A stretch of 64,000 bases of DNA from Eledone cirrhosa. Lineage: Eukaryota. Of the stretch, positions 21,163 through 60,939 are shown one piece after another. Position 1 is the first letter of the stretch. Every line of letters begins with the position of its first letter. The stretch lies in NCBI GenBank assembly GCA_964016885.1, contig OZ024740.1, positions 184,574,001 to 184,638,000 of the forward strand. The letters run 5' to 3'. A program made the position numbers and the translations under genes. Under the pieces are notes generated by a model. That model made no database searches. It was given only the letters and a program-made list of their open reading frames with translations, and was not told the origin of the DNA.

Positions 21163-21234
21163 TATTACATAGTCTAGTGGTTACAATTCCTGGCTTTCAC
21201 CCAGGGGGCCCAGGTTCGATTCCTGGCATGGGAA
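21163..21234 (+). pseudogene. tRNA-Glu(TTC) pseudogene
   Basis: AGTCTAGTGGTTA (A box/D arm), anticodon arm CCTGG-CTTTCAC-CCAGG, T arm CCAGG-TTCGATT-CCTGG, 3' CATGGGAA. The 5' acceptor strand reads TATTACA rather than TCCCATG, so the stem is broken. Confidence 0.85.
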
Positions 21235-30311: not shown

Positions 30312-30343
30312 GTTGGATGAGAAACGGGGCAAATGGGAAAGGG

Positions 30344-32110
30344 TCACTTACCTTGTTCGTGTGGTGAAGGGACAGTAGAACCGTCCCTTTCGCTGGTCAT
30401 GAGTGTTTCCAAGAGGATGTCAGTGTATATCATCTTGGTAACCGTCCCTCTGAAGTCTCCAACTGCGTTGGGGAATTTTTGTTTTAAAGGTTTGTATTGT
30501 TCTATTGAGATTTCGATGTTGCTTATGTTTGTCGGGAGAGTTCTTGGTGTTGGTGGGGTGTAGTAGTTTTTTTCCGTTATGTCTGTGTGCTGCTTTATAT
30601 ATTTTATGAGTTCTTTTTTTGCTATGTTTATGGCTGTGTACTTTTTGGGGGGAGGGGTGATTTGTTTGCCGTTTTCTTCTTGTTGCTGTTTGGTGTGTGT
30701 GTCTTGTTGTGTTTGCATTGTTGGTGTTTGTGGTGGTATTGCTGCAAGTTTCCTTGCTGCCTTTACCCCTCTTTGTATGCCTTCGCTTTAGGAGGGTGAA
30801 TCTAAGGGTTTTTTTGTTTTTTGTTTTTTGTGGCAGACCGTTTGCCACTTCAATCCCGCCTCAAACTCTATGTCGGATTCCGTAGCGTCTGGGAGGGGTA
30901 TGTGCTCCACGGCTGTTCTTGGTGGTAGTGGAGCCCTCTTCGGCAATTTTGTTTCCGGTGTAGCTACTTCAAATGTAGCTATTGGTGTTGCCGCTACTGA
31001 TGATGCTGCTTTAGTTATCCGTGGCCTTGGTACGGGTGCTACGGACGTTGCCCTCCTACTCACCATGGAAGGGGATTCTTCGTTTGTTGCCTGTCCTGCT
31101 CTTGGTAGCATAGGACCAGGTATTGAAAGGAGAGGGGCCCTCTTCGCTGTCTTCTGCAGGCAAAACGCCCTGGGGTGACCCTTCGACCCAGAGAGATAAC
31201 ATTTTGGCCGTCTTCCTTCTACAATTATAGGGAGTTGGAGTCCTTCCTCGATGTCTATGATATCGGGGATAGCCTCGATACATTCCTGGTCAGTTTGTAT
31301 AAGCATTTGCATGCCTATACCTGACCAGTTCTCTCTCCCCATTTTTTCTACTTGCAGCATGGTCGCCCTGTTCTCAATTCCAGCAAGGACAGACGCGGCC
31401 AGCCAAGGTATGGGCACGTCGGGTGGGACCTGGGTCACTTTGACCCTCATAATTTTTTGCCCGCAGTAGGAGGGCACCAAGACTATCTCCTCACTCTTTA
31501 GGGTTTACAAAGTGTGATACTTTGCTTCCTGGGGGGTGGCGAAAAGTACGTCTACTGTGGCGTACTTTCTGCCTCGGGTGATGTGGGGTTTTGCGTGCCC
31601 AGACGCACCCCAAGGCCTTTTGGATTTGAGCCTTCGTGGCTCTCTCCACTCGATGTGAGATTTTGCTTACGGTGCGGTAAGTCGCCGTCCGTAGCTGCTG
31701 GTCCTTGAAAAAATCGGGTGGAGGTTTCAGGGAAACTCTATTTGCGCTTCTTGTCACCATGGCCCTTGCGACTGCCATCTCCTCCTCTGTGACTAACACT
31801 GTCTCGATATTTCGGGCGACACCTGCAAAAGAAGTTGTCACTTTTTCTGCAGCACCACTATTGCTGCCGCTACTGGTCTTACTGGTGGTGCTGAGGCCGC
31901 TGTTACAAGTATCGGTGTTATTGCTGTTGTTTTCGCTGGTACAGTTGCTGCTGTGGCTGTTGTTATTGTCATTGTTATTGTCGTTCTCGACCTTACCGCT
32001 GTTATTTTTGTTATTGTCGTTCTCGACTTTACCGCTCTTATTTTTGTTGTTGCTGTTGTTATTGATGGTGTTGCTGTTGAGGGTGTTGTTGGTGTTATGT
32101 TGGTGTTGTT
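30344..32110 (-). pseudogene. A1 ORF1 (RRM-like region, degenerate CCHC knuckle, T/P/K-rich linkers), disrupted
   Basis: RRPKCYLSGSKGHPRAFC knuckle. The central domain aligns with 33304-33936 and 39391-39873 (PSxxG.R..R.RV....P....WL..., EN/DWSG..ME/EILI). Confidence 0.8.
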
Positions 32111-32119
32111 TGTGTTAGA

Positions 32120-34783
32120 ACATTGGCACATTCGGGAAATCCAATCGGTACCTCTCAGACAGTTCAAAACGCCTGTGCAGGTTGGTGACACTCTTGCACG
32201 CTCCTCCCCTTACCACTAATCCCACACAGTCCCAGCGTGCATCTAAGATCCCGTTCCAGTCGCCCACTAACACTAAAGAGCGGGACGATCCAAGAAAGGT
32301 CTCCAGACGCCGGAAGAAATCAGGCCGCCCTGCTCCTGTCGGGGCATAGACGGCTACTAACCTGAAAGCTTGCCCGTCTCCGCTGGTCACGTCCAGCACC
32401 ACCAACTTACCTTCTGGGTCCAGGAAGATGGCCCGTATGGCAAGATCCAAACCTCTCCGAAAAAGCACAGCAACTCCTCCCCCGATCCCGGACGGCTGGG
32501 AGATGCATACACATCGTGTCCGCCGAAGATCGGTGCGAAGGCCCGATCCTCGGAGATTCTGGTCTCGCTGATGGCCACTACATATATGTTTAGTGACCTG
32601 AGGTTGTTGAGCAGGTGGCCCTGCTTCCATGACGACCCCAAGCCACGCGCATTTATGCTGCCTATTCTGAGTGAGGTCATGTTGAAATGGAGTGGAAAAG
32701 ATGGGAAAGACCAATTACCTTACTTCTCGGAGAAGAAGGACGGTATCTCCATTCTTTTCACTGCTTGTGGCCTCCTCAGGAAGGATGTCCTTATAAATCC
32801 TCCTGGAGAGTGCTTGTCGGAAGTCTCCGATGTCTTTGGGGAATTTTTGTTTTAGTGTCATGTACGTTATCTGTGTGATGCGAGTGATTTGTATGTGTGG
32901 AGGTGGTGTGAACTTTTGGGTTGTTGTGTAGTCTTTTTCTGTGATGCTGGTGTTGTGTTGGATGTAGTGTAATAATTGGTTGTTGTTCAAATGTAATGTA
33001 GTGTGTATCGTTTTGGTTGTTTTGTTTGCGTTTGTTGTGGGCTTGTTTCTGTTTCGCTTTTTGGTGACTTTTGTGGTGTAGGTGATGGTGGTGTTGGGGT
33101 TAATAATGGTGATGGTGTTGGTGTTTGGGGTGCTGGGGTTGGTGATGCTGGTGTGGATGGTGGCATATCTGTCCTAACTTTTTTGTTTGATAGTTTATTT
33201 GTTTCCCTCTGTATTTTGTTTTTAGAGGGGGAAGGAAGAGAATGTTTTTCTTTTCTGGTTATATTTTTTATTTTTTCCTGATACCGTTTCCCACTCCTCG
33301 TCGTCACAATCTATCTCCAGTTGTGATAGGCCGGGGAGTGGAAAATCCTCCACAGGCGTTAGTTTTGGTTGTGGCCTGGTGGATGGTGTAGGCGCTGGTG
33401 CTAGTTCTGGCGCGTTGGGTGGTGGTGGTGGTGTTGGTTTTGCTACTGTTGCTGAGGTTGTTGCTGTTACAGTTGCTTCTGTTGTTGCTGCTACAGTTGT
33501 TGCTGCCATCTCTGCTGCTGTTGGTGTTGATGGTTGAGTCACTTCCCTCGACAATTACGGTGAGGTGGCTGCCGTCAGTGAGGTCTATTACCTCTGGGAT
33601 CTCCTCAATGCCTTTTTGGTCCGCTTTGATCAGGAGCTCCATCCCAGATCCGGACCAGTTCTCCTGCTTTTCTTTCGCTATTTCGATTATCTTGGTGTTG
33701 GCTTCGATGCCGGCGAGGACGGCAGCTATTAGCCAGGGAATTTCGATGGCCGGTGAAACGTGGGTGACCCTGATCTTTACGAGTCTCTGGCCACAATAGC
33801 TTGGGACGAGTGTGAAGTCGTCACTTCTTAATGGGGCCATGGAGTATTCTCTAGCCTCCTGTGGTGTTTCAAAGAACACGTCCACAGTTCCATACTCCTG
33901 CCCACGTCTGATATGAGTTTTTTTTTGCCCACACATGTCCCAAAGCTTTTTGGATTTGGGACTCGGATGCCCGTTCCAATCGGCGCGATTTTATATTAAT
34001 TGTTCGATAAGACACGGTGCATAGGCGCCGATGGCCCATTTTATTAGGTGTTAGGGGGGGGGGAAGACGCCGTACCCATCTTTCTTTACCATTTTTTTGG
34101 CTTCTTCTAATTCCTCCTGAGTTACCTGAAATTATTCGCACTGTTTTGCTACTCTGGCAAAACTCACGGTGGTTTTCTTAATGTCATTGTTGCTGTTGCT
34201 GTTATCGTTATTTTTGTTATTATTAATTTTAGTTTCAGTTGTGGTCGTGGTGGCGTCAGTGGTGTTCGGTGTGGAAGAGCTCATTTTGGTTGAATTCATT
34301 TCGATATCACGAGTTAATTTTTTTTTCCTTTTGTTTCTGTTGTCGCGGTGCTGGTGAGGGTCGTGGTTGTCGCGGTGGTGGTGATGGTAGTGGCGGCTTT
34401 AACACCTGCAGTCATTGGTAATGGCGGGAAATGAATGTCTGCCTGAGACAAATTTAAAATATTGCTACTGCTTATATTTTTAGTGTTGGCAAACGTAGTA
34501 ATATTTACAATGGTGGTGTCGGTGTGAGGTTTTAGTTTGTGAGAAAGGAGTGACTCTGAGTCAGCCATGATGTTTCAAAGAAAAATTTTTGTTTGATAAT
34601 TATAAAAGTTTAAATTTGGGGCTCAAGGCCCCAATCTTTTTGGGTGTCCTTTTCAGATAACAATGTATGTGCACTTATATACAGTTAACAATAAAAAAAA
34701 TTCCATGAATGGCAATTTTGAACAACTGAAAATAACAAACCTTTGCGGAGCTCACGATGATACGATTTACTACGTAGGTCGCC
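32120..34783 (-). mobile_element. Tx1/L1-clade LINE, copy A2 (5' UTR, ORF1 and endonuclease N-terminus only)
   Basis: ORF1 starts at ATG 34568 (MADSE...). EN start MTSLRIGSINARGL at 32680 continues to LVGDWN...NVPM and stops abruptly at about 32120. The 5' end abuts (AAT)n. Confidence 0.88.

Positions 34784-34827
<44 letters not shown>
34784..34827. repeat. (AAT)n tract between Tx1-like copies
   Basis: Directly visible. Confidence 0.95.
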
Positions 34828-34830
<3 letters not shown>

Positions 34831-37800
34831 TTTCATTTATTAGCCACAAGGGCCGACATGTAGGGGACAATACAAAGACAGTGACACTGGGGTTTACAAT
34901 AAGGTCGAGTAAAAGTGCACAATGGCAAGACTAATTTAACAATGAAAATATAAAAATATAAAATAAATTATGCATAAATATAACAAAATAAATTCCCCGA
35001 TAGGGGGTGGACGACCCTGGGGTGACTCGGGTACACCACCAATCCTGAACCACCCTGCGTTTCTAGGGCACCCAGGGAGAGCACCCCTCTCCTCAAGTTA
35101 GCTAGCCTATAGGCGCATTGTCAGAGTAGGCTCATTCACACGAGCCATTCTCGCCACATTCACCCACCTTTTAGCAAATCTACTGGGGGACAGCACTTCT
35201 CTCTCCACCCTCACCTTCCTTTCCAGGTGAAACTTGAAGAAGTTGATGAGGGATTGGCCGGAGAGAAAAGTGTCTGTCTTCAGTCCTTTTAACCTGCTCC
35301 ACCATACAACCTCTTTTGCAACTGCCACCAGACAGAGGAAAATTTCCTGCTCTTTCTGACCTAAGGAAGGCGGTGGATCGATCTTCGCTATGGACTCGGC
35401 CGATAGCCGGATTCGTTCCACACGCGAGAGTAGCTGTTCGATATAACTCCACAAGTCAGTAATGCACGGACATTGGACGAGTGCGTGCAGAACGGTTTCG
35501 TCGTTCTGTGCGCATCTTGGGCAGGTCCGTCTGACAGCACTTCCGTGCCTGTAGAGTTTATCCCGAACCGGCAGTGCCCCCCGGTAGCACTGCCAAGCGA
35601 GGGATTTCTGGAAATTGTCCATCGTCCCCGGCTCAAAAGTCCTCCGGTACAGACTGGTCAATTCGACTTAGTCGAGGCCCAAAGCTTCTCCGAGTGCGTC
35701 ATCGCACTTTCCCACCACTAATCCTCTATAGAACTCGAGAGTAGAAGTTCCACTGATCGCATTGCCCGCTTGGTAGAGGGCAGCGAGTGTCAGTCACACA
35801 ATCTCGGTCTCTCATTGACCCAGATCTGCAGTTCAATCAAAGAAATGAGCTGCGGAAAGGCCCGTCTGATAAACGGCGACCACACCTGTTCACCGTTGAG
35901 GCAGAATATCTGGAGATGTCGCAGCCTCAACGCATGACTGCGCATCATTAGCCACGGCATGCCCAGCCCTCCGCGTAGAGGGTGATGGCAGCAGATGGAC
36001 CGCCTCACCAACGGAACTTGTCCCCTCCTCAAGAATTTGAAGAGGAGCCGTTCCAACTTGACGAGGCGCAGACGGGGACAAGGCACGACGGTCAGGCGGT
36101 AGTAGATGACGGACGCGATGTACGCATTCGCCACCTCCGCACGACCTTTCAGTGATAGCTTCCTCCCAGCCCATTTTTGGGTGAGACTGGCTACTCTGCT
36201 CGTTACCTCGTCCCAATTCTTTTCCACCTGGAGGTCTGGTCCGAACCAAACCCCGAGCAACTTTACCGGTCCATCCGTCCAGCGCCCCACGACGCTGTTG
36301 GACGGCATGGGCTTGCCTCTCCAGGTTCCGAGCTACATGCCCACCAACTTTTCCGGGTTAAGTTTGACTCCTGTCAATCTTTCATATTCCTTCGATAAGG
36401 TGCCGACCACCTCGATTTCTGAGGTGTTCGACACCATCACTGTGATGTCGTCCGCATAAGCCGACACCGCCTTTCCACGTCCCGGTTCGAGCGGGATGCC
36501 CTGCAACAGCTCCAGCTTCCGCAGTAAAGGCTCGAGAGTCAATACGTAGAGAAGGGAAGAGAGAGGGCACCATTGACGGACCGAACGGGAGAGCCGAAAT
36601 GGTTCCGAGAGGTGGCCATTAATTTTGACCACCGAGCAGGTGTCGCTGTGCATTGCAGCGATCCAGCTTCTGAAGACGAGGCCGAAGCCAGCCGCCTCGA
36701 GGACAGCCTCCAGGTACCGATGGTCGACCCTATCCAATGCTTTTGATTGATCTAAATTGATCAGAGCCCCACCGAAGCCAGGTTTACACCATACCCTCTC
36801 TATGATGTATCGCATTAGGTGGAGGTTGTCGTGTGTGGACCTGGTTGGGATTGCGCAAGTTTGCGCCTCCCCAACCAAATCCCCGACGTGAAGCGCCAAC
36901 CTCTTCGCTAACACCCTGGCCAAAATCTTAAACTCTGTGTTGAGCAGAACTATGGGCCTGAAATTGTCTAATGTGTCCCTCTTGTTCTCGTCTTTCCTTA
37001 TCAGCGTTACTATGCCCCGACTCACAGAACTGGGAATACTTCCGTTCTGCTGCCAATTGGAGATTGGAGAACAAGTCTGGCATATTTACATAAACTCGTA
37101 GGGCAGACCATCCAAACAGGGTGACCTGCGCTCATGCAGCCGACAAGGGCATCCTGAATCTCGGCTGAAGTAATCAGCCTTTCGCAGCGCCCAGCGTCGG
37201 CCATCGAGAGTTGCGGCAAGCCATCGACGTAGGGACTGAAGTCCGCCACCGTCTCTGACTCGCCACTTCCCCCGAACAACCGAGCAAAATGTTGGCGAAA
37301 GGCTCCACACATTTGCTTGGAATCGTTCAGCTCGTGTTCATCTCGGTCCGTCAAAGACCGACTCGTGGTTTTATTACGACGCTGCGCCTCTGCCACACGG
37401 CCCCATCGAACAGCTTTGGTTCCCTCTTTTCTCAGAGCATGCACCTTAGATCTGACTATGCAACCTTCGTGTTTCGCATTGAAGAAATGGTCAAATGCCA
37501 TTCTCGCCGCTAGCACATCAGTTGCAATGCCACTACCAATAGCCTCGTCTAACTTATCTAACAACTACCCCTCCTTTCTATTTTTCTCTAAAGCTACTTC
37601 TTTGCTAAACTCTATGAACATTACACTAATCGCTCTTTTGAGAGACCCCACCATCTATTGTTGACGACTCCCCCTGTCAACTTTTTCTTAACTAAATTGT
37701 TGACCTGGTCCCTGTAATCCTTACGTGCCGGAAAGGACATGTTCAGCTTCCAGTAACCAGGTCCTAACCTACGCGTCTTATCTAGGTCGACCATACAGAT

Positions 37801-40702
37801 CACAAACTTGTGATCTTAATAGGCGACCGTTTCAAAAGTTGGACAGCTTACACCATTTCTGTCTATTTTCCTAATGAATATCCTGTCTATATACGATCTA
37901 GATGACCCCATGCGGTTAGTCCAGGTCCACACTGGCGCATTAGGGAAATCTAGTCGGTACCTGTCAGACAGTTGGAACTGGCTGATCAGGTTCTTGAGGC
38001 TATTGCACCACTTGCTCCTATTGGATACTCCCACTCAGTCCCAGCGTGCATCTAAGATCCTATTCCAGTCCCCCGCTAAGAGTAAAGGGCGAGGCGTAAC
38101 CAGAAAAGCTTCCAGGCGTCTAAAGAAGTCCGGCCGTCCTGCCCCAGTTGGAGGGGAGGTAGACGGCCACCAGTCTAAAGGCACCACCTTCATTATTTTT
38201 CACGTCCAGGACCACCTACTTCCCGTCTGGGTCCCGGAAGATTGACCTTACCTCGAGATCCAGGTCTTTCTTAAACAACACTGCCACCCCACCTCCCGTT
38301 CCCGGCCGACTAACAGATGCAAAGATCTGACAGTCGTCGAAAATGGGGGCTAGTGCACGCGTGTCGGAAATTCTGGGCTCGCTGACGGCAATTACATCCA
38401 TTTCTAGAGACCTGAGGTCGTTGAGTAGGTGACCCTGCTTGCAGGACGATCCCAGGCCTCGAACATTTAAACTTTCTACTCTTAATACGGCCATGTTGGC
38501 AGGTTAAAAGAGAGAGAGGAAAGGTTTACTTACCTTCCGGGCTCTTGTGAAGGTCGGGTGATTCGATCTCCATAGTTGGTGGGGTTTGTTTTGGGAACCC
38601 CTTTAAAAGTCTTGAAGTGGGTTTTACGTTCGGGGTTCGCACGTCCCATGGAAAGCTGTCTCATATCTCTTTGTATAAATCGAGCGATATTCGCACCAGA
38701 AACAAATCTTCTGGCACGCGAAATGTGCTCAATTTAAAAATTTCACCCTCTTTTTGTATATTTTCACTTCGTGCTACGAGGGCCATCAGTTCCTTGTTGG
38801 CCCTCCTGACAAGCACGAAGTTTTGTATGTTTTGTTGGTGTGATTTTATTTGTTTGCGTGGATGTGGTGGTGATGGTTTTGGTGGTGTTGTTTCGGTTGT
38901 GTCTATGTTTGTTGTGAGTGCGGTGTCTGTGGTTTCAGATGTTTGTGTGTGTATTTGTTCTTGTGTTTGTTTAGGTTGTTTGCGTTTGGGGGATTCTGGT
39001 GATGGTGATGGTGGTTTTGATGTTGGTGTTATTGGAAAGATGTTTGCATGGGTGGTGTCTGCATTTTTTATTGTGGGTGATTTTGAGCTTTGTTGAGTTT
39101 TTTTTTTCCTTTTTGTGTTTCCTTTTTTGTATTTTGGGGGATTTGGGTTTTCCCTCATCTTCACTACTGGTAGATGAGGGGTCTGTGTCTGAAAGTGTGT
39201 CTGTGTGTCTGTTTATATTTTTTATTGATGTGTATATTTTGGGGAGGAGGGGAAATTTGACAACTTTCCCTGTTCCCCCCTGGGTGGTCAATGTTGGTGG
39301 TGGTCTTTCTGTTGGTGTTATTGTTGGTGGTTTTGCCGGTGCTGGTGTTGGTTGTGGTCCTCGCCTCGGCGTCAGCAGCAGCGGAGCCCTTCAACCACTT
39401 GCATCTTTCAGCAGTTGAAGGAAGAAGGCTCGCAAATGGGTTTTTTCCCCACAAACAAAACAATGCGGCCTTTTGCCCTCAGACATAATATGAATAATCG
39501 TCCCATTCTGAAGGCAGATATGGTCCGGGATTGTCTTCGCATTCTCGGGCCTGATCTGAAGAAGTATCTCCAGGTCAACCCCGGACCAGTCCTCTCTGGC
39601 CATTCTTGTCACTTCAATCGGGACGTTATCCGTCCCCTCCACAATCACACTTTCCAGAAGCCAGCACATGTCAAGTCCTGGTAGGATTCTGGGAATGCGG
39701 AGACGGGCCGTTCTTTTTCCAATGTGGGAGGGGTACATTATGACCTTGCTGGTTTTGCAAGGAGTCATAGCGTGTTTCATAGCGAGGGCTTCTGACTTGA
39801 ACAGCAACGAAATGGTGCCGTACTGTTTGCTCCTCGCTATGTATTCAGTGTTTTCTCTAATGCACCTCGACATCTGCTTGTGGAATTAATGCTGCCCTTT
39901 TGCTTTGTGCTGAGATGCATCTATAATGCACCGTTCTGCGCTCCACTGCCTCAATAGCTTCTACCGGGACAGTTAAGTTCGCCCAGGTTTGCTCTTGCTT
40001 AATGAGCTTCCAGGCCTGGGCCAACTTTTCATATTTGTTTGAGAGGTCCATGTTGAAAGATGACCTCTTTTTTGCTGCTGCCGCAGCGAAAGTGTTCTTC
40101 TTGTTGTCGTTGGGGGTGTTGTTGTTGTTGTTCTTGTTGGTGGTGTTGTTATCACTGTCGCTGTTATCATTGTTGTCCTTGGTGCCACCGTTGTTCTCGG
40201 TGCAGTTGGTATAGTTGCTGTTGGTGTTGTCGCTATTTGTTTTCATGTTAGTGGTGTTGATATTGTTGTTGCATTTGTCATTTTTCTTTGTTATCTGTAT
40301 TTTCGTTGTCGCTGTTACTGTCATTTTTTTCAAAATTAGAGTTCTCAGTGTTGTTATCATTGCTGACTTTGTTTACATTGTTTGTGGTGTTGTTTTCTTT
40401 TATCAATTTCTGTTAATTTGGTCATAGTGCTCCTCTCAACATTTACGTCATTGTCGCACGACAGCAGACATATCGCTGAGGGGCGTGGCTCAGCCATGAT
40501 TTTTTTTTCTTTTTTTTTCGATAATTTTTTTTAATGTAAAGAGTTCAAATATTTCGGTCAAAAGGCCCAAATATTATTCTTTCCCCTTCACAGGGCAAAG
40601 TTCAAGGGCTTGTATGCCTTACACCACAACAAAAAAATTCAATAAATAAGTTTTGACAGGTAAATAAATAAACTTACGGGAGAGAGCAAAAAGACGCTGC
40701 TC
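34828..40702 (-). mobile_element. Tx1/L1-clade LINE, copy B (apparently full length, about 5.9 kb; frameshifted)
   Basis: 5' UTR, ORF1 from ATG at 40497 (knuckle KRPHCFVCGEKTHLRAF), ORF2 from 38494 (MAVLRVESLNVRGL) through RT (NFRPIVLLN, LDQSKALD, AYADD) to CPRC..H..C ending at 35107, then a 3' UTR with AATAAA. Confidence 0.92.
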
Positions 40703-42140: not shown

Positions 42141-42745
42141 CCTTTACCAAGAGGTGCGACCAGGAGATAGTATTGGCAATGGAAGGACCAATGGAAACAT
42201 CGTTTTCTCAGTCCAATTTTATGAGTTCCACCCTACTCAGTAAGCAAATGAGGTCTGAGATCTTGTCAGTCGACCTTTCTTTCCTATAGAATAGCCAATA
42301 GGCAAATTGGCAGTTGTTAGACCATCAGATAGAATGCTCTACCCTCTCTAAATTCAAATTCCACAGAGGTCAACTTTGCCTTACATCTGTTTGAAGTCAA
42401 TCAAAAAAAGTATCAGCTCAATATTGGTATCAAATATCCCCTATATTCTTTTCTCACTTCTTCTCAATCGCTTTCTCTCTCCTTCTCTGAAGAAAGTCAG
42501 CTATTTTCATACCTGGGGAGGGGTCTGAGCACCACCAAGTTTTAAATTCCCCCCAAATGCTGTATGTCCTTATAGCACTCCTACAAATCCATCATGAGTT
42601 ATGGGGCCATACATACCGTATTTCCCAGCACCGAAGACGCTTCATCCTCAAAGACGAAATATGGTACATAAAATATCCAATACTACATTTATTTTAACAA
42701 TAACTCATTTGAAACATCAATACATCTATATATACATATTTATAT

Positions 42746-42830
42746 ATTGTTATGTTTGAGGATGGTCATGTTGCCAATATTACCAATAAAATGAAACACA
42801 CATATCATATGATTTTCACATTATTTTTAT
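42746..42830 (-). mobile_element. Decayed 3'-terminal fragment of the Penelope repeat
   Basis: ATTGTTATGTTTGAGGATGGTCATGTTGCCAATA resembles 45941 and 57709 and also follows a TA-rich tract. Confidence 0.6.
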
Positions 42831-45223
42831 CTTTATTGCTCATTTGTCAAATATTCTGTGACCTCTTAAATAAATATCTGTTCTCTTTTGCACCTTCTCT
42901 TCTTTCTGGGCTTAAACGTCCACTCCATCTTGTCTTTTGTTTTCTGGTGTGTTTTACACATATACGTATATTATTTTATGTTTTCCTGTGATTTTGTGTT
43001 TCAATATATGATTTTATAGCTTATAGAAAAACATATCTGAATGTTTATTTTTACACACCTACACACACGTAGTCAGTCATTTTCAACAGTGAGAATTCAG
43101 TTATTTAATCAAATGTATATGTGATTAAATAATCCAAAAACACATGTATTGTTAATATAACTCTGAGGTCAAATACACCTGGTATAGAATGTGACAATAG
43201 TTGCACCATTGAATTTATGGTACAAACAATCCAATGGATTTCTACAGTTTCCTTCTATCTAGTTTTAACCACAATATACCAAGAATTTTCTTGAACAACA
43301 TATTCTTTGAAATTAATTTTTGTAGAATAGTTTTTTGAATATATTATTTCATAAAATATACTACTGTCGGCAACCTCCTGCACAATAGTCATACCATCCA
43401 TATCAGGTGTCTTTAACTTGCAGGTCATGCCATGAGGAGCAATGAACTTACTACAAAACTTTTACCTTAGAGGTCCATTAATGTAAAATACAAACGTGAA
43501 AGACCTCTCAAGGAATTGAAGAGACTGATTGAGGAAGATACAGTGAAGAACTGAAGCAGTTAATGCTTGATCATGTGAGATGAAAAGGTTTTATCATGTC
43601 ACAAAAAAAATGGATGAATTTAGTAGTTAGTTAGTAGTAGAATATATTTTTTGTCAATAGTCATTTGATTTGTGATTGCTGTTTAATATTATTTTATAGA
43701 CATCAAAACATCAGATCAAATAATCAGACAATATAGTACAAAATTCATTAGATTCTGCTTCTGTGTTTGATCAATATTGATTATTTTTATCCATAGGTGT
43801 GATGGAGTTTGTGTTGTGTAGAATAGGAATAATGTAAGTTAATTCCAACTGGTTTTTCTTTTTGTATATGTTAGCTACAAGACTTTTAACAATATCATGA
43901 CTTGGAGATATGACATGTAAAAAATAAATGTCTGTTGACAGAAATGATATTTAAAAAAACAGCTGACCAATAACATGTACCAGCTCTAACACAGATTGAA
44001 GCATGAAATACAGTATCCAGAGTACAGGGAAAGAGCTGTGTGATGTACTGATTTCAAAACATTTTCTGGGCATATATTTTGTTCAGGATTGAAAATGTAA
44101 TCCTTTTTATTCAATTGTCATCTTTATTACATACCCACATGGGTGCCACTCCCCTACCCACATCCATTCTCACTGCATAATGCAACATCCCAGACACCTC
44201 ATAATACATCTGCATGTCTGACAAAACACGGTCATATGACTGTGACCTTGCCCCGTTTATGGTTATGCTATTTAATATGCATTTTGTCTACAGTAAACGA
44301 CTTCTGACTCAGAGAGTTTTATTTGTGGTCACTCCTCTCAAACTTGACAGCTTATTTCACTCATTTCAAGCTGGTAGCTCAGGCAACAGTTATTATCAAA
44401 AGATGATTTAGATTTTACTACTGCTCTTTGCTGCATGTGTGAATGTACACACACATGTGAGTGTTATTGGGTAGGATACATGAGTACCTGTGCATGTGTA
44501 TGTATGTAAGAAAGAGAGAGTATCAATGTTTATATGAGTATGGATGTGGAATGTTTGTGCGTGTTTCAGCAGTTTTCTTGCTGCACAATAAATGGGTAAA
44601 TTTGTAATTCACCTCTTAGCATAAAGGGAATGCACTCACATGATATTTAAGAGATATAGAGATTGATTCCGTGTAGGTATGTCAGGCCACATTTTTTGGT
44701 CTCTAGGAATAATTTAGCCGATTTTAATAGCAGATATATTTATAGTGATTGGCTGCGCTTCAGGTTATTTTCTATGCTTGGCATTTTCACATTTCTGAAT
44801 TTTTATACATTCATGCCTACATACATTCCCAAAATTATGCATGTATTAACTGCATGTACACATGTACAGATGCATAACCTATGCACATGCACATATGTAA
44901 CTCAAAACATCCACATACACACATAGAATAACTTCCATACCTGCACTTACATGCATGCAAACATGCATACATATCTTGCTAGTTGAAGTTGTCTAAATTC
45001 AAATAAAAATGTCTTGTGTATGTTAAAAACTGACTCTCTCGCTATTGATAAAAATTTATAAAATTATAAAACCAGAAAAATATACATACATATATATGTT
45101 TGCACAAGTGTAATATTTTTGTTTATGTGCACATATCTATCTATGTGTACACGCACACACAAGGGTATCATATATATATATATGATACCTTTGTGTGTGC
45201 ATGTACACATATACATATATTGC

Positions 45224-45289: not shown

Positions 45290-45475
45290 ATAATTATACT
45301 GTGTGGTTTATATATTATTATACATTAAATATTTAGCTCTGTTACTTACATAGAGCACTCTTCATTCCTTTTACTTTTTCCACAGAAACTTCAACACTTA
45401 TACACATATATATATATATATATTGTAATAAAATAACAGGAGGCTGGACTTATGTAAATCCTTGAAAGGTTTATT

Positions 45476-45533
45476 ATACTATGATCATTTCAATGACCGG
45501 GTTCCGTATGAATCCGGTGTTATCATCAGGTAT
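45476..45533 (-). ncRNA. Hammerhead motif (family B), left arm
   Basis: ATAC-CTGATGA-TAACACCGG...CCGGTCATT-GAAA-TGATCA-TA-GTAT with palindromic helix III. Confidence 0.75.
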
Positions 45534-45627
45534 TCGAAATATAACAAAGGAATATAACAGATAAAATCCATGGGGCTGAAAATCATACACAAGGGGATGA
45601 CTGTTATATTCCTTTGTTATATTTCGA

Positions 45628-45685
45628 TTACCTGATGATATCCCCGGATTGATACAGAAGCCGGTCATTGAAATGATCATAGTAT
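45628..45685 (+). ncRNA. Hammerhead motif (family B), right arm
   Basis: TTAC-CTGATGA-TATCCCCGG...CCGGTCATT-GAAA-TGATCA-TA-GTAT; more decayed than the left arm. Confidence 0.65.
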
Positions 45686-45871
45686 AATAAACCTTTCAAA
45701 GATTTACACAAGTCCAGCCTCCTGTTATTTTATTATAATAATTAGCTCCGTACTTGCACCACCAACTACACAAACGAAGACGGGTGAGTTGCATTACGTT
45801 GAGTACTCTCCATTACATCGAGATTGACCATACAGAATGACCAATTCTATCCAGTGGTGAACCAGCAAACC

Positions 45872-45944
<73 letters not shown>

Positions 45945-46094
45945 TTATGCTTTGGGAGGGTCATGTTGCCAATAAAAAACACACGCACCAGATGCTTTCA
46001 CTCCAATTTATTATAAATTAAATTTATAAATTTAAGAATTTATAAACTTCCGGTTGGTTGGTTGGTTCCACAACCGGACGGTTGTTCATATATT

Positions 46095-46137
46095 GTCAAA
46101 GTTCTTTCGTCACACATTCTGTGATATCTTCAGTGAC
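46095..46137 (-). ncRNA. Minimal hammerhead motif (family C), left arm
   Basis: GTCA-CTGAAGA-T-ATCACA-GAATG-TGTGAC-GAAA-GAAC-TT-TGAC. Confidence 0.65.
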
Positions 46138-46254
46138 TGGGGATTCTTTTCTTTGTTTTGTGCCTCTCCTTTGTTTTGTCCTACGCCATCTTGAAAAACA
46201 AGATGGCGTAGGACAAAACAAAGGAGAGGCACAAATCAAAGAAAAGAATCCCCA

Positions 46255-46297
46255 GTCACTGAAGAGGTCACAGAATGTGTGACGAAAGAAATTTGAC
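46255..46297 (+). ncRNA. Minimal hammerhead motif (family C), right arm
   Basis: GTCA-CTGAAGA-G-GTCACA-GAATG-TGTGAC-GAAA-GAAA-TT-TGAC. Confidence 0.7.
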
Positions 46298-46710
46298 AAT
46301 ATATGAACAACCATCCGGTTGTGGACGCAACCAACCGGAAATTTATAAATTCTTAAATTTATAAATTTAATTTATAATAAATTGAAGGGAAAGCAACTGG
46401 TGCTTATGTTTCTTATTGGCTAGATGACCCTCCCAAAGCATAACAATATCGGTTTCAACACAGGTTTTCAGATAAAGAATCTTGCTAAACAAATTCAGAA
46501 ACGAAATATATATATATATATTTATATATTTATGTATGTATATATATGAAGGATTCACTCTGACAGCAGAGCATCTGTCATTTCAACAGCTAGATCCGAG
46601 CACGAGCTCAGCTGTTGGGGTCCCAAATCTTTCATATTACCCAATCTACCACCCCAAGTATCAAGTTCTCTGGTGAGTAATGGCCTAACTGGTTTTTACT
46701 GCATCCATTA

Positions 46711-46747
<37 letters not shown>

Positions 46748-46752
<5 letters not shown>

Positions 46753-47188
46753 TGAAATAAAATGAAAACAAAATTTCATTTCTCACTCTTAGTATGGCAC
46801 TTACTTAAATGTAAGTATGCATGTATACGTACATACATATATGTATACAGACGTACAGTAGCATGTTAAGGCAACCACGTCACCTTTTTGTTCAACACTG
46901 ACACAGGAACGATTGTACTAGTTTCAAGCTTGTTAGCTATCATCAGCACCGTTTACCCATCTGCCAGATAGTTGAACGTTCGAAAGTATATACTTTCCTT
47001 ATGAAAATTAACGGCTGAGCAGCCTAATTTGCATATTGAGTGAGTTAAATCGGTCAGGCATACCGAAAACGATAAATTGAAATAAAATGAAAACGAAATT
47101 TCATTTCTCACTCTTAGTATGGCACTTACTTAAATGTAAGTATGCATGTATACGTACATACATATATGTATACAGACGTACAGTAGCA

Positions 47189-47262
<74 letters not shown>

Positions 47263-47380: not shown

Positions 47381-47593
47381 ATATATATAGTATTAATTAT
47401 ACTATTTATGGTTATGCAAATACAAAAACCTTTTGTAGTTATATATATTTTTATAAGCCCTAAATAGTGGTAGGCAGTAATATATTACTACCTTATTACC
47501 AGTAAGTTAAATAGCTCAATGTAATAACATCAGATGTTTTACAGAGCAGTTATATGAATTATAAGAATCAAAGAACTGTTCAAAACATTTTTA

Positions 47594-47640
47594 TGCTTAC
47601 AACTGTTTCCTCCAAACCAAGGTTTGGATTCTTCGGAGCA
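47594..47640 (-). ncRNA. Hammerhead-like motif (family D), left arm
   Basis: TGCT-CCGAAGA-A-TCCAAACC-TT-GGTTTGGA-G-GAAA-CAGTTG-TA-AGCA; core has U4C. Confidence 0.6.
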
Positions 47641-48159
47641 ATTTATTATTGAATGAACACTTATATGACCTCCTATTCACCCAAGAGACATACAGATACA
47701 TATGCAAATATTGTGGGTCAACATTCATTACAGCATTTAGTGTGGCAGTACACATTTAGAGATTACATTCATATTAAAAGATACAATCAAAAATACAGGT
47801 TAAAATACATGAAATTAAGCGGTTATAGAGTGCAATGGTTATATGTGTGGCAAGCACGTGCTTCTTGTTTATATAGTGTGGCAGAGAGTTACGTGTAATA
47901 GAAGCATTTAAGCAGGTAATCTATATAAACAAGACGCACGTGCTTGCCACACATATAACCATTGCACTCTATAACCGCTTAATTTCATGTTATATTTTAA
48001 CCTATATTTTTGATTGTATCTTTTAATATGAATGTAATCTCTAAATGTGTACTGCAACACTAAATGCTGTAATGAATGTTGACCCACAATATTTGCATAT
48101 GTATCTGTAAGTCTCTTGGGTGAAAAGGAAATCATATAAGTGTTCATTCAATAATAAAT

Positions 48160-48206
48160 TGCTCCGAAGAATCCAAACCTCGGTTTGGAGGAAACAGTTG
48201 TAAGCA
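48160..48206 (+). ncRNA. Hammerhead-like motif (family D), right arm
   Basis: TGCT-CCGAAGA-A-TCCAAACC-TC-GGTTTGGA-G-GAAA-CAGTTG-TA-AGCA; core has U4C. Confidence 0.6.
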
Positions 48207-48251
48207 TAAAAATGTTTTGAACAGTTCTTTGATTCTTATAATTCCTAATTC

Positions 48252-48330: not shown

Positions 48331-48729
48331 TCATTAAATTTATATAAATGCATTAATGCAAATATAGTTATAAATATATAGCCTGCATTAGTTTTTGTGT
48401 GTACATAATATAAATTCAATTTATTTATAGTGATGCCTTAATTAAAAAACATATACGTCTATGAAAGCATGTTTACTTATGATTACATCTTATGTTGTAC
48501 TTTATGAAGAGTGTGAAATGAATAAAAATTTAGATCCATATTTTACCATGCATCATATACTCAGCTTCACCTGAACTGTTTCATTATACAGATACACACA
48601 CACACACACACACACTTATATATGTGTGTGTGTAAATTCGATAACCATATTCCATAAACATTTTTGAAAATTTCATGAACAACTCTCCAGTCAAATACTT
48701 GAAAGCCTTTTGATAATGATATATCAAAT

Positions 48730-48900
48730 AATTGTTTCTACTTTTGGCACAAGGCCAGCAATTACCCAGTGTATTATTGGTACTTTATTTTATCGACCCC
48801 GTAAGGATGAAAGGCAAAGTTAACCTCGGCGGGATTTGAACTCAGAATGGCAAGGGCCGTCAAAGCATGCCGTCCGACCCTCTACCAATACTGCCAATCC
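48730..48900 (-). mobile_element. SINE family 2 copy
   Basis: Match to the 7232-7413 unit. Confidence 0.85.
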
Positions 48901-50129
48901 AATAATCTTATATTACCCAAATATATATGAGCTGCTGGTAAAGGAAAATGTTATTTTTTCAAGAAACCTTACTATCAAAATAATTGATAAAATTGTACAT
49001 ATGAAATGTAATATTTCATGTATATTTTCTCTATATCCTTAACAAGACATTACTCAATATTCATGCTGAAACATTTTTTCCTGCAAATAAAGATTGAACG
49101 TTATTTCTCATTGGAGAAGCATTAACTCACAGCAGTTTATGTTATGTGCACTGATTGGTTGTAATTTCAACTACAGAGTGAAATTCTGAGAATGTATGTA
49201 TAGAAATTTCAAATTCATATAGGAATTAAAGTAACTTGGTTGGGAGTTTAATAAGTGTAAATCTACCATAGGCAATGAATTCCTAAAAGCACTACAATTC
49301 TTTAACAAAATTCTTTACAGTTCAAATATAATAAGTTCAACTTCACCTTTTATCATTCTGGAGTAAATAAATAAATTACTGGTTTGTCGGAACAGACTAT
49401 CAGATACATTAGAAAATTTCATAAAGCATTTGGTTCTATTATTTACATTTCGATTTCAAATAATTATGTAGCCTTTTTGGATGATCAAATTAATTTGTCA
49501 CCTAGTGTTAAACCACTATATAAATCTTTGGTGCTATTATGAGAGACTATTTAGTTGCAAGTATTGTGGCTATATCTCTGACTTAAGCATAATTTCCTCT
49601 TTTAACCACACCAGTCAAAGAAGCCCTGAAAAGAAGCATTGGCCAAATTATTAAAGAAAATAGTTTTCTTGTGTCTCTAAGAAAAACACATATCCTTTTA
49701 TATGTGTCATGTACAATAGACTACTATTCTCATCTAATTATCTGAGTTTAAATACTTGCTGAGGTGAACTTAGCCTTTCATCCTAATGGGGCCAATCACT
49801 AAAGTGATAGTCAAATATTATTATTCATCATTCTCTCCCTGTCTCTTACCCACTCTCTCTTTCCCCAAATCACTGACATTATGGAAAAGAGTCATGAACA
49901 AATACTCCCAGCTTTTTTTTTTTTATTAAATGTTGAGAACAATTATATGAGAATCTAGCAATATCTTTTTACCAAATGAGATATATATTATAGGAACGAT
50001 CAAAGGACAAACTGATGGGCAGTAAAACATAAACTAGAAATTAACTTTTAACAATCTGTAATGATTTATCAGAACATATCTAAAAACAGGTTTCTAAATT
50101 TAAATGTTTATACTGTCTTTACTAGGTAA

Positions 50130-54459: not shown

Positions 54460-57400
54460 TATGAGGCCCTCTTACCAGCACTTTCACTTCCACCCACCCC
54501 TGATGCCGCTCGGTGCCCCAGTCCCCGGCCCACGCCCCACACCCCATCCCTCTAAGCTGACACCTGCAGCACTTGCAGCACCACTAAAAAATGGAAGAGG
54601 CGCCGGAACTGTTTGGGGTGCGGCTGCTTCCACCCCACCACCTCACCTGCATTGGCTTGACTCATCGAGCTTCCAATGCCCTCGCAGCATGGAGGTGCAG
54701 GAGCTGCCTCCTCCTCCACATCTTCCCAGCCACGGCCGTCTGGCACACCACCAGATGGGACAGTGAGCTTGCCTGATACCCGAGCCTCGCTGGTCAACAT
54801 CGCTTATCTCAGGCGGCTCCAGAAGATCCCACTCAGGATCCCGAGAGCGGCACGGGTGCCGGTAGCTGATGCCCTCGCTTCCTCAATTGAGAGCGCCAGT
54901 GACTGGGAGCGGCTGTTCTATTTCGCCCCACTCGCCCTCGGCCTCCCCAGTTCTGGTGCTGACCGGGACGGGCGGTCAACAGAAGCCTTCGTCAAGGCGA
55001 ATGTCTCATCCTTTGGGTGAGCGCTCATTCCAAGCATGCCCAGGGACATCACACAACCCACCATCTGGTACCCCCTATCCTCCACCCCCGAGGCCAGCGC
55101 CAAGCGTTTGCGTGACCAGATAAATGCCAAGCTTATCATGGGTGATGTCTCGGCCACAGTCAGCGTTGTTGCCTCAGAGGACACTGTACTCCAACCCACC
55201 GAGGAGTCCTTGGCTGCTCTGCGACTCAAACACCCTGATCCACCCACTGATCTCAGGCCCATACCCCCACCCGACCCCCACTTTCTCGTTCTGGCTTCTG
55301 ATGCAGACATCATGTCTGCCATCAGGTCCTTCCCAGCTAGCAGCTGCGGAGGTGTTGATGGTCTCCGACCATGCCACTTCAAGGAGTTGACATCCCCCCT
55401 CTCTGCTGAGGCCGGGCGCTGCCATCTGAGTGCAATTGTGGGGCTCATCAATAGGCTCATCTATGGTGCCCTTGACCCTTACGCCCGAGGTCTTTATTTT
55501 TTGGCCAGCCTCACTGCCCTCAGGAAGAAAGAGGGTGGCATACACCCCATTGCTGTGGGCAATGTCTTCCGGAGGCTGGCTGACAAGGTGATCTGCAGGT
55601 CTGTAACACACGAACTGGGTGAGGAGTTTAGTCCAGTGCAACTGGGTGTCGGCGTGTCCGGTGGCTGTGAGAGGGCCGCTCATGCAACCACGCAGTTCTT
55701 CAACAGCTGCCCATCGGAACCAGCATACAGGGACTCCAGATACCTCATTGTCAAGCTTGACATGAGGAATGCCTTCAACCCTTTACGCCGGGATCATCTG
55801 CTCGAGGCCTGCCTCAGCTGAGCCTCCTCTGCCTACCCACTGGCCTACCTGTCATATGGAGCCTCGAGCATGCTCCTTACTGCTGATACGGTCATACCCT
55901 CGGCTACTGGGGTACAACAGGACGACCCTTTGGGACCCCTCCTGTTCGCCCTTGGTATTGACAACATCGACCGGAGTATCATGGCCCCTCTGGATGATGT
56001 TATGTTGAGCGGGCCCGTACGGACGGTCTGCCATTACCTTCAATCGGTGGTTCCTGCCCTGGCGGGAATCGGCCTCCAGGGTAACTCGACAAGTCGGAGG
56101 TGGTGAATGTCAGCCTCGATACTGCGAGCGTTTCAGCCTCCGTCTTGGACATGCGGTCCATTCTCCGCCAGGTTCAGGTGGCCTCCAAAGAGGATGTCCT
56201 TATCCTCGGGTCACTGATCCACCCGCCGGCCATCCGCTCCACCATCAGGTCCAGGCTTCAACAGCTCCACACTCTCACGAGCCGACTGAGTTTGATAGAT
56301 GGCCACCCAGCTTTCTTTCTGCTGAGGAACTGCTTCACCATGCCGAAGCTCCTCTATACACTCCGCAGTGCTCCGTGCTACACCCAGACATCTCTCCTCG
56401 CTGACCTCGATACTTGTATCCGAGCAGCAGCCGAGGAGATATGCAACGTCAAGTTTGACGACATAGGGTGGCAACAGGCCACTTTACCTGTCAGGTATGG
56501 CGGCCTTGGCCTCCGGTCGCCGATCTCACTAGCTTTGCCGGCGTATCTTTCGTCGGTAATTTCGTGCCGCATCCTCGTCAGCAGGGTTTTTCAAAACACA
56601 ACAGAACCCTCTGTGTTCAGAGAATGTGAGGCCGCCTGTGAGATGTGGGACCGGCTGGGACTTAGTCCAGTTGACATCCCCCTCCTTCTCCCCCTGTTGA
56701 CGTCAAGTCCCCCCAACGCACTTGGGATGCTATCCAGTGCAGCCTGGCCTCAGACAGGCTCAGGCGCCAGCTTGACCAGCACCACCTTGCTTGTTTTTGT
56801 GTGGCCTCCAAACTCCACAGTGATGCCTGGCTCCATGCCCTGCCCCCTTCTCCACTGGCACGCAGCTAGACAACCATAGCTTGCGCATCAGCGTTTGCCT
56901 GAGGCTCGGCCTCCGGATCTGCCAGCCACACCAATGTAACTGTGGTTCCACCGTGGACTCTTTCGGCCTCCATCCGCTTTCCTGTTTACACAGTCCCGGC
57001 CGCATTCCACGCCAAGCTGCACTCAACGAGGTCATTAAGTATGGCTTGGATGCTGCAGGCCTCCCTTCCCAGCTCGAGCCGGTGGGGCTGGATCGAGGGG
57101 ACGGCAAAAGGCCAGATGGTATGACCATCTACCCATTCCGCGGTGGCAAACCCCTCGTCTGGGATGCCACTTGCACCGACACTTTCTGCAGCTGCAACCT
57201 GGTGCAGTCTGCGACTGACCCAGGTCCTGCTGCACGTCGGGCTGAGGGGCCAAACTCCTCAAATACTGGTCGCTCTCCGACAGGTTTGCGTCATACCCCT
57301 GGCATTGGAGACTTCTGGTGTCCTCGGCCCCAGGGATACCTCCTTACTCACCACCATGGGCGCTGAGCTGGCTAGCCGCAGGTGTAAGCCCCGCGACTTG

Positions 57401-57560
57401 GAGTGGCTTTTCCAGCGCGGCTCCCTTGCCGTCCCCCGGGGAAACGCCTTCTCCATTCTGTCCGCCGGGGTTGTGGGTGGGCCCCATTGTGTACCATTTT
57501 AGTTGTTGTATACAGATATTAACTCATCAATCCCATTGTCCTAAAACTCTATATAAAAGA
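54460..57560 (+). mobile_element. CRE-clade-like non-LTR retrotransposon (PHD-like finger + RT + CCHC + restriction-like endonuclease), disrupted
   Basis: GVDGLRP, LTALRKKEGGIHPIAVGNVFRRL, QLGVGVSGGCE, KLDMRNAFN, GVQQDDPLGPLLF, LDD, QATLPVRYGGLGL, CNCG..DSFGLHPLSC, KRPDGMT..PLVWDATC, PLALETSG. GC-rich; several stops and frameshifts. Confidence 0.88.
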
Positions 57561-57866
57561 GAGATGTTTCTTGGTTGGTTGGTTTAATCACACACAAATT
57601 ATACACACACACACATCTAAAGTGAGAGAGAGACAGGGAGAGGAGCAGAGAGAGAGAGTGTGGCAATGAACGCGGGTACTCCACATATATATATATATAT
57701 ATATATATATTGTTATACTTTGGGAGGGTCATGTTGCCAATAAGAAACACACGCACCAGTTGCTTTCACTTCAATTTAATTTAATATATATTTATAAATT
57801 TACAAATTTATAAATTTCTGGTTGGTTGGTTGGTTCCACAACCAGATAGTTGTTTATATATATATA

Positions 57867-57909
57867 GTCATAGTTCTTTCGTCACACACTCTGTGACCTC
57901 TTCAGTGAC
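57867..57909 (-). ncRNA. Minimal hammerhead motif (family C) in the Penelope 3' repeat
   Basis: GTCA-CTGAAGA-G-GTCACA-GAGTG-TGTGAC-GAAA-GAAC-TA-TGAC, on the same strand as the PLE ORF. Confidence 0.82.
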
Positions 57910-58218
57910 TGGGGATTTCTTTCTTCGTTTCTGTGCCTTTCCTTTCTTCTATCCTACGCCATTTTGTTTGTGTGTGGGTTGCGTGCTCAGTTTGCGCATG
58001 CGCCACATCCGGGTGTCTGTGTGTGTTTGTGTTCATTTTTCTATTTTTCTATTTATATTTGTTTGTTTATTTATTTTTTATTTATTTATTTATTGTTGGT
58101 TGGTTGTTTGTTCTATGTGTGTGTGTGTTTTCATTTTGTCTTGTGTGTGTTTTCATTTTGTGTGTGTTTTCAATTGTAAGTTGTTTGTTCTATGTGTGTG
58201 TGTGTTTTCATTTTGTCC

Positions 58219-60681: not shown

Positions 60682-60939
60682 AATAGATCCAAGTATCAGT
60701 AGATTTGTTGTTTTAAACCAGTCATTGAAAGTATTTTACAGAACACAGAAATAAATGATACTATTAATCTACGATGTAAATTAATTTAGCTTTTTGAGGA
60801 TAGAGTCATATTATTATTGACCTAATTCAGATGACAGAGAGTCAACCTATTCTCTAAGGCTGCGATTTGCATTTATTTCTATTTTTTATATTGCTTTATA
60901 TTGTTTATTTTTCACAATATTTTCCAAGAAAATTAATTT

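Follow-up and report, generated by a model that had tools for sequence, protein, structure and literature searches.

Two Penelope-like end repeats lie head to head in a microsatellite

The 570-base palindrome at 45938-46507 of the window (the whole 64-kb stretch of DNA analysed here) is, judged by its sequence, a pair of Penelope-like retrotransposon end repeats (pseudo-LTRs, pLTRs) set head to head in an (AT)n microsatellite. The best overall explanation, to which we give a probability of roughly 55%, is that a full-length relative made this pLTR pair in trans, by priming at both ends of the target. The identity of the palindrome, and its family link with an open reading frame (ORF) encoding a reverse transcriptase (RT) and a GIY-YIG endonuclease, we regard as highly probable. 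The palindrome is an ORF-less pLTR pair, likely a dead insertion and not an element in its own right.

Self-blastn aligned the palindrome with itself over 45939-46449 (91.3% over 515 columns) and matched the left arm to 57685-57966 (87.2% over 282, E 4e-94) and the right arm to 57707-57969 (84.4% over 263, E 1e-76), the repeat of the ORF-bearing copy. In a three-copy alignment, left arm, right arm and ORF-copy repeat were collinear from ATTGTTAT(G/A)CTTTGGGAGGG to CGCCAT(C/T)TTG, with the hammerhead core present in all three, as the preliminary description of this DNA had reported for the left arm and 57709-57962. Its attribution of the palindrome to the end repeat of a Penelope family was likewise borne out by self-blastn, collinearity and the likeness of the start peptide discussed below. 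The extent it gave, 45938..46449, fits the palindrome proper (45939-46449), but the element runs on to 46507.

The left flank is a (TA)n microsatellite (45876-45940), the likely insertion target, which is common to the neighbouring palindrome at 45421-45740. The left arm (45941-46193, minus strand) runs from CAAGATGG to what we call the short end and contains an ATG at 45964 with the first 8 codons, MTLPKHNN. At the head-to-head junction five bases, AAAAA (46194-46198, plus strand), precede the right arm (46199-46447, plus strand), which begins with CAAGATGGCG, a YY1-like motif by comparison with L1, and has its ATG at 46424. From the sequence of relatives, which have ACAAA or AAAGA there, the spacer is likely to represent five extra nucleotides of the right arm. 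A one-sided tail of 60 nt follows (46448-46507, plus strand), in which the frame runs on for 20 codons, to 28 amino acids, and ends in AGAAACGAAAT at the right-hand (AT)n (46506-46548). The terminal motif had been described as lying next to (TA)n; this is so for the left arm, whereas the right arm gets to the microsatellite only after the intervening tail. A second copy of the whole 60-nt tail was not found within the 64-kb window. No target-site duplication was readable at the palindrome or at the ORF copy, as all ends lie in (AT)n. An assembly artefact was rejected, since the arms differ by 6%.

A third, decayed end had been reported at 42746 and proved to be real. This more distant pLTR (42746-42932, minus strand), delineated by nhmmer and by sequence, has the short end, an ATG at 42769 and CAAGATGG at 42932-42925. 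The nhmmer matches had E values of 1.1e-7 for 42730-42814, with high composition bias, and 0.13 for 42838-42870. The hammerhead core of this copy is largely lost.

The repeat ends within the start of an ORF

In 4/4 copies an ATG stands 24 nt from the short end and opens a run of 8 codons, which reads MTLPKHNN in both arms, MTLPKYNN at 57732 and MTILKHNN at 42769. These 8 codons, the start of the ORF, close the pLTR; only the right arm reads on in frame for 60 nt, to MTLPKHNNIGFNTGFQIKNLAKQIQKRN, followed by (AT)n. Two types of end can accordingly be told apart: the short one follows codon 8 (..AACAAT), and the long one codon 28 (..GAAACGAAAT). The 28-residue start peptide ranked 1/729 among the Met-started 28-mers of the window (E 0.28) against a profile of the N-termini of five relatives, which were picked from 120 listed matches after the N-termini had been viewed and have at least 41% identity and at least 273 extra residues. 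By summed pairwise alignment score the peptide tied for rank 2-3/729, and 44/5000 shuffles reached its score. This N-terminal match lends modest support to a repeat that ends in the ORF start. A 30-residue start peptide gave 0 matches among 1.84 billion representatives in a search that is insensitive at such a query length, and a word-index search for longer proteins with a 41-residue version, also insensitive for so short a query, gave 0/2 candidates. Residues 1-290 of P0028, used as a query for more N-termini, returned 3 matches of 1566 candidates, none of them new.

The window contains the terminal 11 nt of the tail, AGAAACGAAAT, exactly twice, at 46497-46507 and 60529-60539. The second copy, in inverted orientation, directly adjoins the last base of ORF homology, with (AT)n on its other side. 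The two strands together hold 106 starts of (AT)4+ tracts; the 9 informative bases of the 11-mer, with up to 2 mismatches allowed, stand before these 2 alone, and the chance of a tail-end match in a 10-nt junction window is ~6e-5. Because the truncated end of the ORF bears the inverted 11-nt tail end, repeat and ORF can be assigned to one family without other genomes. It is therefore unlikely that 57709-57962 is an unrelated neighbour of the ORF, a case that had been set against the link: the inverted tail end on the ORF and the likeness of the ATG peptide to relatives' N-termini both argue against it. Alternatively, 60529-60539 could be an older copy in opposite orientation that was deleted down to 11 nt.

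Both complete insertions (n=2) pair one short with one long end. The ORF-bearing one reads (AT)n, short end, pLTR, 3' UTR, truncated ORF, inverted long end and (AT)n, and the palindrome reads (AT)n, short end, pLTR, 5-nt spacer, pLTR, long end and (AT)n.

The ORF-bearing copy as a truncated relative

In the ORF-bearing copy (57709-60539), the 3' pLTR (57709-57966, minus strand; sequence and self-blastn) has the short end, with its ATG at 57732, and abuts (TA)n at about 57685-57709. An AC-rich 3' UTR (57967-58218, minus strand) lies between this repeat and the ORF stop; positions 57994-58003 in it are what we take, by consensus, to be an NRF1-like motif. The ORF itself (58219-60528, minus strand) comprises 769 open codons without a start codon, and the inverted tail end (60529-60539, plus strand) follows at the truncation point. 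The ORF contains RT motifs (DKSG, DVVSLYP, GAAIG, YVDD), a CX4CxxC linker and a GIY-YIG endonuclease; Pfam gave 24 bits for GIY-YIG (cut-off 22.6) and E 2.5e-4 for RVT_1, below the cut-off of that model. A single ORF with RT and C-terminal GIY-YIG is the hallmark of an EN+ Penelope-like element (PLE). Among 7999 sequences scored, 178 relatives were found at E<=1e-10, the best being an Octopus vulgaris protein with 68% identity over 90% of the query; the next reached up to about 50%. On this likeness the host is probably an octopus.

No stop interrupts the frame over 58219-60735, but flank and microsatellite make up the opening 69 codons. Of 17 relatives tested, 14 begin to align at residue 70-71 of this frame, 2 at 55-56 and 1 at 113; 10/11 tblastn matches end at 60525-60528, and the first Met of the frame is residue 125. 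Five close relatives that apparently keep their start have 273-310 residues before the truncation point. On this homology the ORF is 5'-truncated at 60528, with about 270-310 N-terminal residues missing. A tblastn search of the window with 11 long relatives found neither the missing N-terminal piece nor a second PLE ORF (other matches, E 0.31 and 0.56). An intron or a natural start at 60528 was rejected, as the O. vulgaris protein P0002 aligns to relatives at least 20 residues further upstream. The copy thus has neither the start codon nor the upstream pLTR of an autonomous element. The earlier claim of an intact RT/GIY-YIG ORF 11 kb away holds for family membership but not for intactness: the frame is open and 5'-truncated.

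Left and right arm differ at 16/248 sites and by one 4-nt indel, with several of the changes in adjacent pairs, and their distances to the ORF-copy repeat are 30/252 and 32/248. As a tree of the arms is trivial with three alignable copies, we counted site patterns instead. In the aligned region both arms together differ from the ORF copy at 23 sites, and the left arm has 7 private changes and the right arm 9, consistent with equal rates (p 0.80). The copy at 42746, which could polarise only 8/39 variable sites in confident alignment, sides with the majority at 8/8 of them and shares the arm-private state at none of the 6/6 polarisable arm-private sites. Because 23 states are common to both arms against the ORF copy, with 7 and 9 private, the arms are on these patterns sisters, from a subfamily other than that of the ORF copy; arm-to-arm gene conversion could also yield sister arms. 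By the same patterns the ORF copy is a relative of the palindrome, not its parent.

The arm divergence of 5.9% falls within the range of 0-11.8% for 8 palindromes measured in the window, so age suffices to explain the arm differences, one of the two explanations offered earlier. Each arm would have diverged by ~3.2% since insertion, and with a calibration of JC 0.09 = 25 My (PMC13282606) this loosely suggests an age of roughly 9 My for the palindrome. In simulations of decay with frameshifts, the 769-codon frame stayed open in 9/600 runs at 2% decay and in 3/600 at 3%; with stops only, it survived in 41/600 at 3%. At 9% decay, no run (0/600) kept it open. An open frame of this length is hard to reconcile with more than 2-3% decay, and each arm carries about 3%. 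From these simulations it follows that most of the ORF copy's 23 differences would be subfamily differences, and the ORF copy is likely no older than the palindrome.

Hammerhead motifs in the repeat

A scan of the window for minimal type I hammerheads, with criteria taken from PMC4209133, gave 4 matches, at 46259 (+), 46133 (-), 57905 (-) and, in another family, 2991; the same scan of 100 block-Markov controls gave a mean of 0.04 and a maximum of 1. The pLTR has the core, a 6-bp stem II, an extra base after A9 and G10.1-C11.1. Motif scans and folding place the hammerhead of the left arm at 46099-46133 (minus strand), with a stem II shortened by a 2-nt change and the predicted cleavage triplet CUU, and that of the right arm at 46259-46293 (plus strand), with a 6-bp stem II, the extra base after A9 and the predicted triplet AUU. 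The hammerhead of the ORF copy (57871-57905, minus strand) has a 5-bp stem I, a 6-bp stem II and the predicted triplet CUA. Relative to it, the triplets and stems in the palindrome look decayed. In stem/loop III, AGAACT, an A-U and a G-C pair close an AA loop; a scan for perfect palindromes picks up the family at 2991 but not this sequence. A palindromic stem/loop III would allow cleavage as a dimer. Loop III (GAAC) does not look palindromic here, and self-cleavage is putative. The predicted stems I and II form, with folding z-scores for the three 56-nt hammerhead pieces of only -0.4 to -1.3, no better than shuffles. An Rfam scan of the window at the gathering threshold gave no hammerhead match.

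Other repeats in the window

The second head-to-head palindrome, at 45421-45740, has 140-nt arms with 9 substitutions, a 40-nt spacer and its left end in (TA)n. A one-sided extension of 135 nt carries it to 45875, at the (TA)n shared with the main palindrome, and within 45421-45875 lies a decayed hammerhead-like core of another family with the palindromic stem III ATGATCAT. The third large palindrome, at 47553-48247, has arms of 325 columns that are 2.8% different, a 48-nt spacer and its right end in (TA)n; motif scans found no hammerhead in it. The extensions of these two palindromes showed no clear ORF start in their reading frames. Four more palindromes, at 5529-5682, 11801-12027, 15756-15823 and 45133-45220, differ by 1-12% between their arms; the last two lack a spacer, and (AT)n forms the centre of that at 45133-45220. 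At 62636-62701 there is a perfect hairpin with 31-bp arms.

A third hammerhead family, with the palindromic stem III ACTAGT, has motifs at 2991 (+) and 46946 (-) and occupies the regions 46736-47190, 2246-2518 and 2937-3311. Positions 46747-46865 are repeated at 47072-47190 (99%), which makes a retrozyme-like 325-nt unit between (TA)n tracts. A decayed hammerhead-like motif was seen by eye at 60590-60632 (minus strand; motif scans were negative), just beyond the (AT)n at the 5' junction of the ORF; the insertion site of the ORF copy may have been the end of a further hammerhead-bearing repeat.

A broken non-LTR retrotransposon at 54600-57480, presumably CRE/R2-like, has RT-like and KRPDG restriction-like endonuclease motifs; Pfam gave no match in the two pieces of it that were scanned. 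Several broken L1/Tx1-like copies lie at 26900-38540, where 26941-30354 and 35134-38536 are 73.5% identical (RVT_1, E 5e-20). The open frame at 61708-62076, in which Pfam found no match, we take to resemble a Helitron Rep/helicase fragment. A SINE-like dispersed family of about 190 nt has several copies (7026-7424, 10074-10338, 12037-12223, 48726-48901), another dispersed family is found at 2591-2926, 14262-14597 (97%) and 8029-8246, and a partial tRNA-like Rfam match (34 bits) at 21170-21226 is possibly a SINE head. Positions 15030-15229 are an assembly gap of 200 N.

Priming from both ends of the target

In the explanation that we favour, a full-length relative elsewhere in the genome would act in trans. 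Its endonuclease would nick both strands of the microsatellite, and its RT would start once from each nick. One cDNA would begin at each of two sites in the 5' leader, +24 and +84 of the ORF, on the transcript or transcripts of one source gene. Both cDNAs would run for about 250-315 nt to the 5' end of the RNA, which would lie shortly before the YY1-like motif, about 230 nt upstream of the ATG, and their 3' ends would then be joined head to head. The arms would afterwards diverge with age, by about 3% each. In the ORF insertion, the long-end cDNA would have stopped after 11 nt, while the short-end cDNA ran for 2.8 kb. For the central steps, the priming of both target ends at two internal RT start sites, run-off at the transcript 5' end and joining, we see about even odds.

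Several observations bear on these steps. Both ends here finish in AAT. In vitro, PAc, a Poseidon element of Anolis carolinensis, nicks and extends both target strands, cutting preferentially at ATT, and its tail lies between two internal RT start sites in the 5' part of the ORF (PMC11167929). The inverted piece at the ORF copy is the end of the tail and not the sequence adjoining the truncation point; fold-back of the main cDNA is disfavoured at this copy because it would mirror ORF sequence instead. The inner ends of the palindrome lie 5 nt apart, with a chance of 0.4-4% under three uniform truncation models, and sit at CAAGATGGC; the 5 extra bases at the junction are purines. Human L1 has CAAGATGGCCG at nt 12-22, a YY1 site that directs initiation at nearby purines (PMC2912911), and Drosophila Penelope has an internal TATA-less promoter (PMC2377424). 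Because the inner ends coincide at an L1-like YY1 motif and Penelope provides a precedent for an internal promoter, we infer run-off at the RNA 5' end, with transcription starting near this motif. The window holds 8 instances of the YY1-like pattern, of which 3 belong to the family of the palindrome and 5 do not. Coincident inner ends are not general, since the two neighbouring palindromes have 40- and 48-nt spacers.

A tentative alternative is fold-back, or self-priming. One cDNA or antisense RNA containing tail and leader would snap back with a 5-nt loop and be copied to the short end, and ATAT microhomology or the endonuclease would join it to (AT)n. Inner ends within 5 nt of each other, with the predicted 5-nt loop and a perfect 4-bp closing stem, fit this proposal, as do the sister arms; the natural sequence after the short end reads ATAT, matching the target, and self-priming is the model favoured in the Discussion of PMC3846280. 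The sibling ORF insertion fits it poorly, since its truncation carries an inverted tail end and the neighbouring ORF sequence is not mirrored. The two relatives whose sequence reaches beyond the YY1-like motif also lack an upstream primer hairpin (0/2), but the source subfamily could hold one. A possible hybrid would be primed at the long site, run off, snap back and be joined by ATAT microhomology at the short site. A comparison of the arms with other copies had been proposed as a way to choose between snap-back and separate templates. The site patterns did establish sister arms, but they do not decide between snap-back and two primings, because both, when the primings use the transcripts of one source gene, give sister arms.

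A proposal in which each end copied RNA of a different source gene or subfamily appears improbable. It draws on the 16/248 differences and 4-nt indel between the arms, several of them in adjacent pairs. The fourth copy, however, shares arm-private states at 0/6 polarisable sites, the private counts are equal and the divergence is ordinary for palindromes of the window. The preliminary description's two templates from different subclades thus find no support in sister arms that agree with the majority at 8/8 polarisable sites. We likewise doubt strongly that the palindrome is a propagating non-autonomous element, a hairpin RNA or MITE-like unit copied as a whole. It has kept both RT start sites, and a promoter-like motif in each arm, as such a unit would, but there is one copy in 64 kb, its arms have diverged by 6% and its hammerheads look decayed against that of the ORF copy.

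Very improbable, too, is an inverted duplication of a solo repeat at the DNA level, in which replication template switching or repair would have made the second arm without retrotransposition. Sister arms would be expected, and other palindromes in the window show no sign of PLE origin, one of them (45133-45220) being centred on (AT)n; yet the left arm, in common with the copies at 57709 and 42746, stops exactly at the family's short end, and (TA)n follows where a duplicated tail and flank would be expected. We give almost no credence to the nearby ORF copy, the candidate mobiliser of the preliminary description, as mobiliser or template of the palindrome: it is of the same family, 11.3 kb away and has its catalytic motifs, but it has no start codon, 5' pLTR or tail, misses about 270-310 residues, differs from the arms at 30/252 and 32/248 sites, 23 of these shared, and is likely no older than the palindrome (9/600 frames open at 2%, 3/600 at 3%).

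PMC8557442 lists the origin of inverted repeats in PLEs as unresolved, and PMC3846280 explained it by antisense self-priming. As an object the palindrome is ordinary, a dead Penelope by-product, and its value is as evidence on mechanism: two insertions that pair short with long ends are a small but useful clue. The inverted piece of the ORF copy is beyond what fold-back of the main cDNA could supply, and it fits two start sites and two-strand priming as described in a different clade (PMC11167929). We advance a broader generalization only as speculation. Inverted repeats of Penelope would arise by two-ended target-primed reverse transcription with a different start site on each strand, giving every insertion one short and one long end, and ORF-less palindromes would be pairs of strong-stop cDNAs, with transcription starting at their centre, at an L1-like YY1 site. 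An octopus-like genome, in which several hammerhead families are stacked in (AT)n tracts, would then preserve a large natural archive of such events. If so, the palindromes of the genome would let the origin of inverted PLE structures be tested by end counts. Should the pattern hold genome-wide, PLE transcription starts could be read from palindrome centres and RT start sites from the ends. Annotation may also mistake palindromes of this kind for MITEs. A MITE or DNA transposon was rejected here on ends that are asymmetric by 60 nt, a single copy in the window and retrotransposon-derived arms.

Comparison with known systems

Inverted 5' copies with a one-sided tail are standard PLE anatomy (PMC8557442, PMC3846280), and this arrangement is seen here at 46448-46507 and 60529-60539. 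As in Pen2/Pen2a of Adineta vaga (PMC3846280; scheme in PMC8557442 Fig. 2), the inverted repeats are head to head, hold the first codons of the ORF and bound 5'-truncated copies. In Pen2a the pLTR holds the first 12 amino acids, and an optional tail at one inverted end extends this to 22 (PMC3846280); the values here are 8 and 28. Unlike those elements as described there, the palindrome has no ORF between its arms, its tail measures 60 nt rather than 30-40, the inverted piece of its sibling is 11 nt of tail only, and no target-site duplication is readable.

Pairs of minimal type I hammerheads on opposite strands are also known from Schistosoma mansoni, 100-700 bp apart there and about 125 nt apart here, with the same long stem II, short stem I and unpaired base before stem II (PMC4209133). 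The S. mansoni pairs are noted in one sentence of that section, which gives no ends or mechanism; here, loop III looks non-palindromic. Non-LTR retrozymes (bioRxiv 10.64898/2026.07.22.740005) resemble the palindrome in being non-coding, in carrying a type I hammerhead and in their relation to PLE pLTRs. We rejected this assignment, as their units are direct tandem repeats whereas the arms here are inverted. No long-period tandem array in the window passed the trf filter.

Like PAc, the family has ends inside the ORF start, two end positions that bound a tail and an AT-rich target, and its terminal AAT is the complement of the preferred ATT of PAc (PMC11167929). PAc belongs to the Penelope/Poseidon clade and has its ATG inside the hammerhead, whereas the ATG here is about 130 nt downstream of it; PAc starts at about +111-118, against +24 and +84 for the ends here, the short one of which may involve ATAT microhomology. 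L1 twin priming also starts reverse transcription from both ends of the target (PMC2912911). It draws on a single RNA and inverts stretches of it that do not overlap, whereas both arms here copy the same 250 nt, so that two RNAs or re-use of one would be needed. Among open-licence papers we found none that proposes two-ended priming for PLE inversions.

Recently active Penelope families have been reported in O. vulgaris, and the passages on them contain 0 mentions of palindromes or hammerheads (PMC13282606); the O. vulgaris repeat library may already hold the PLE family of the palindrome. A Cys linker marks Neptune and Nematis, and (TA)n targeting has been linked to it (PMC8557442). The ORF has CIDKKCITC at 712, VYSIRCTEGQC at 734, two downstream His and a C-terminal EN, a linker common to Neptune. 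By eye against PMC8557442 Fig. S2, it agrees with Nematis in its C-terminal GIY-YIG, CX4CxxC, a 7-aa gap to the next Cys and an EA-type C-terminal motif. Neptune rows of that figure have a gap of about 20 aa and mostly ExxWI; the long gap and the end motif ExxWI..L.T..P.GLN were not seen in the ORF, which has the 7-aa gap and EAVSIKELKPKLN (also by eye). On these motifs the element looks Nematis-like, and the palindrome is a further, Nematis-like example of the already published inverted pLTRs with a one-sided tail.
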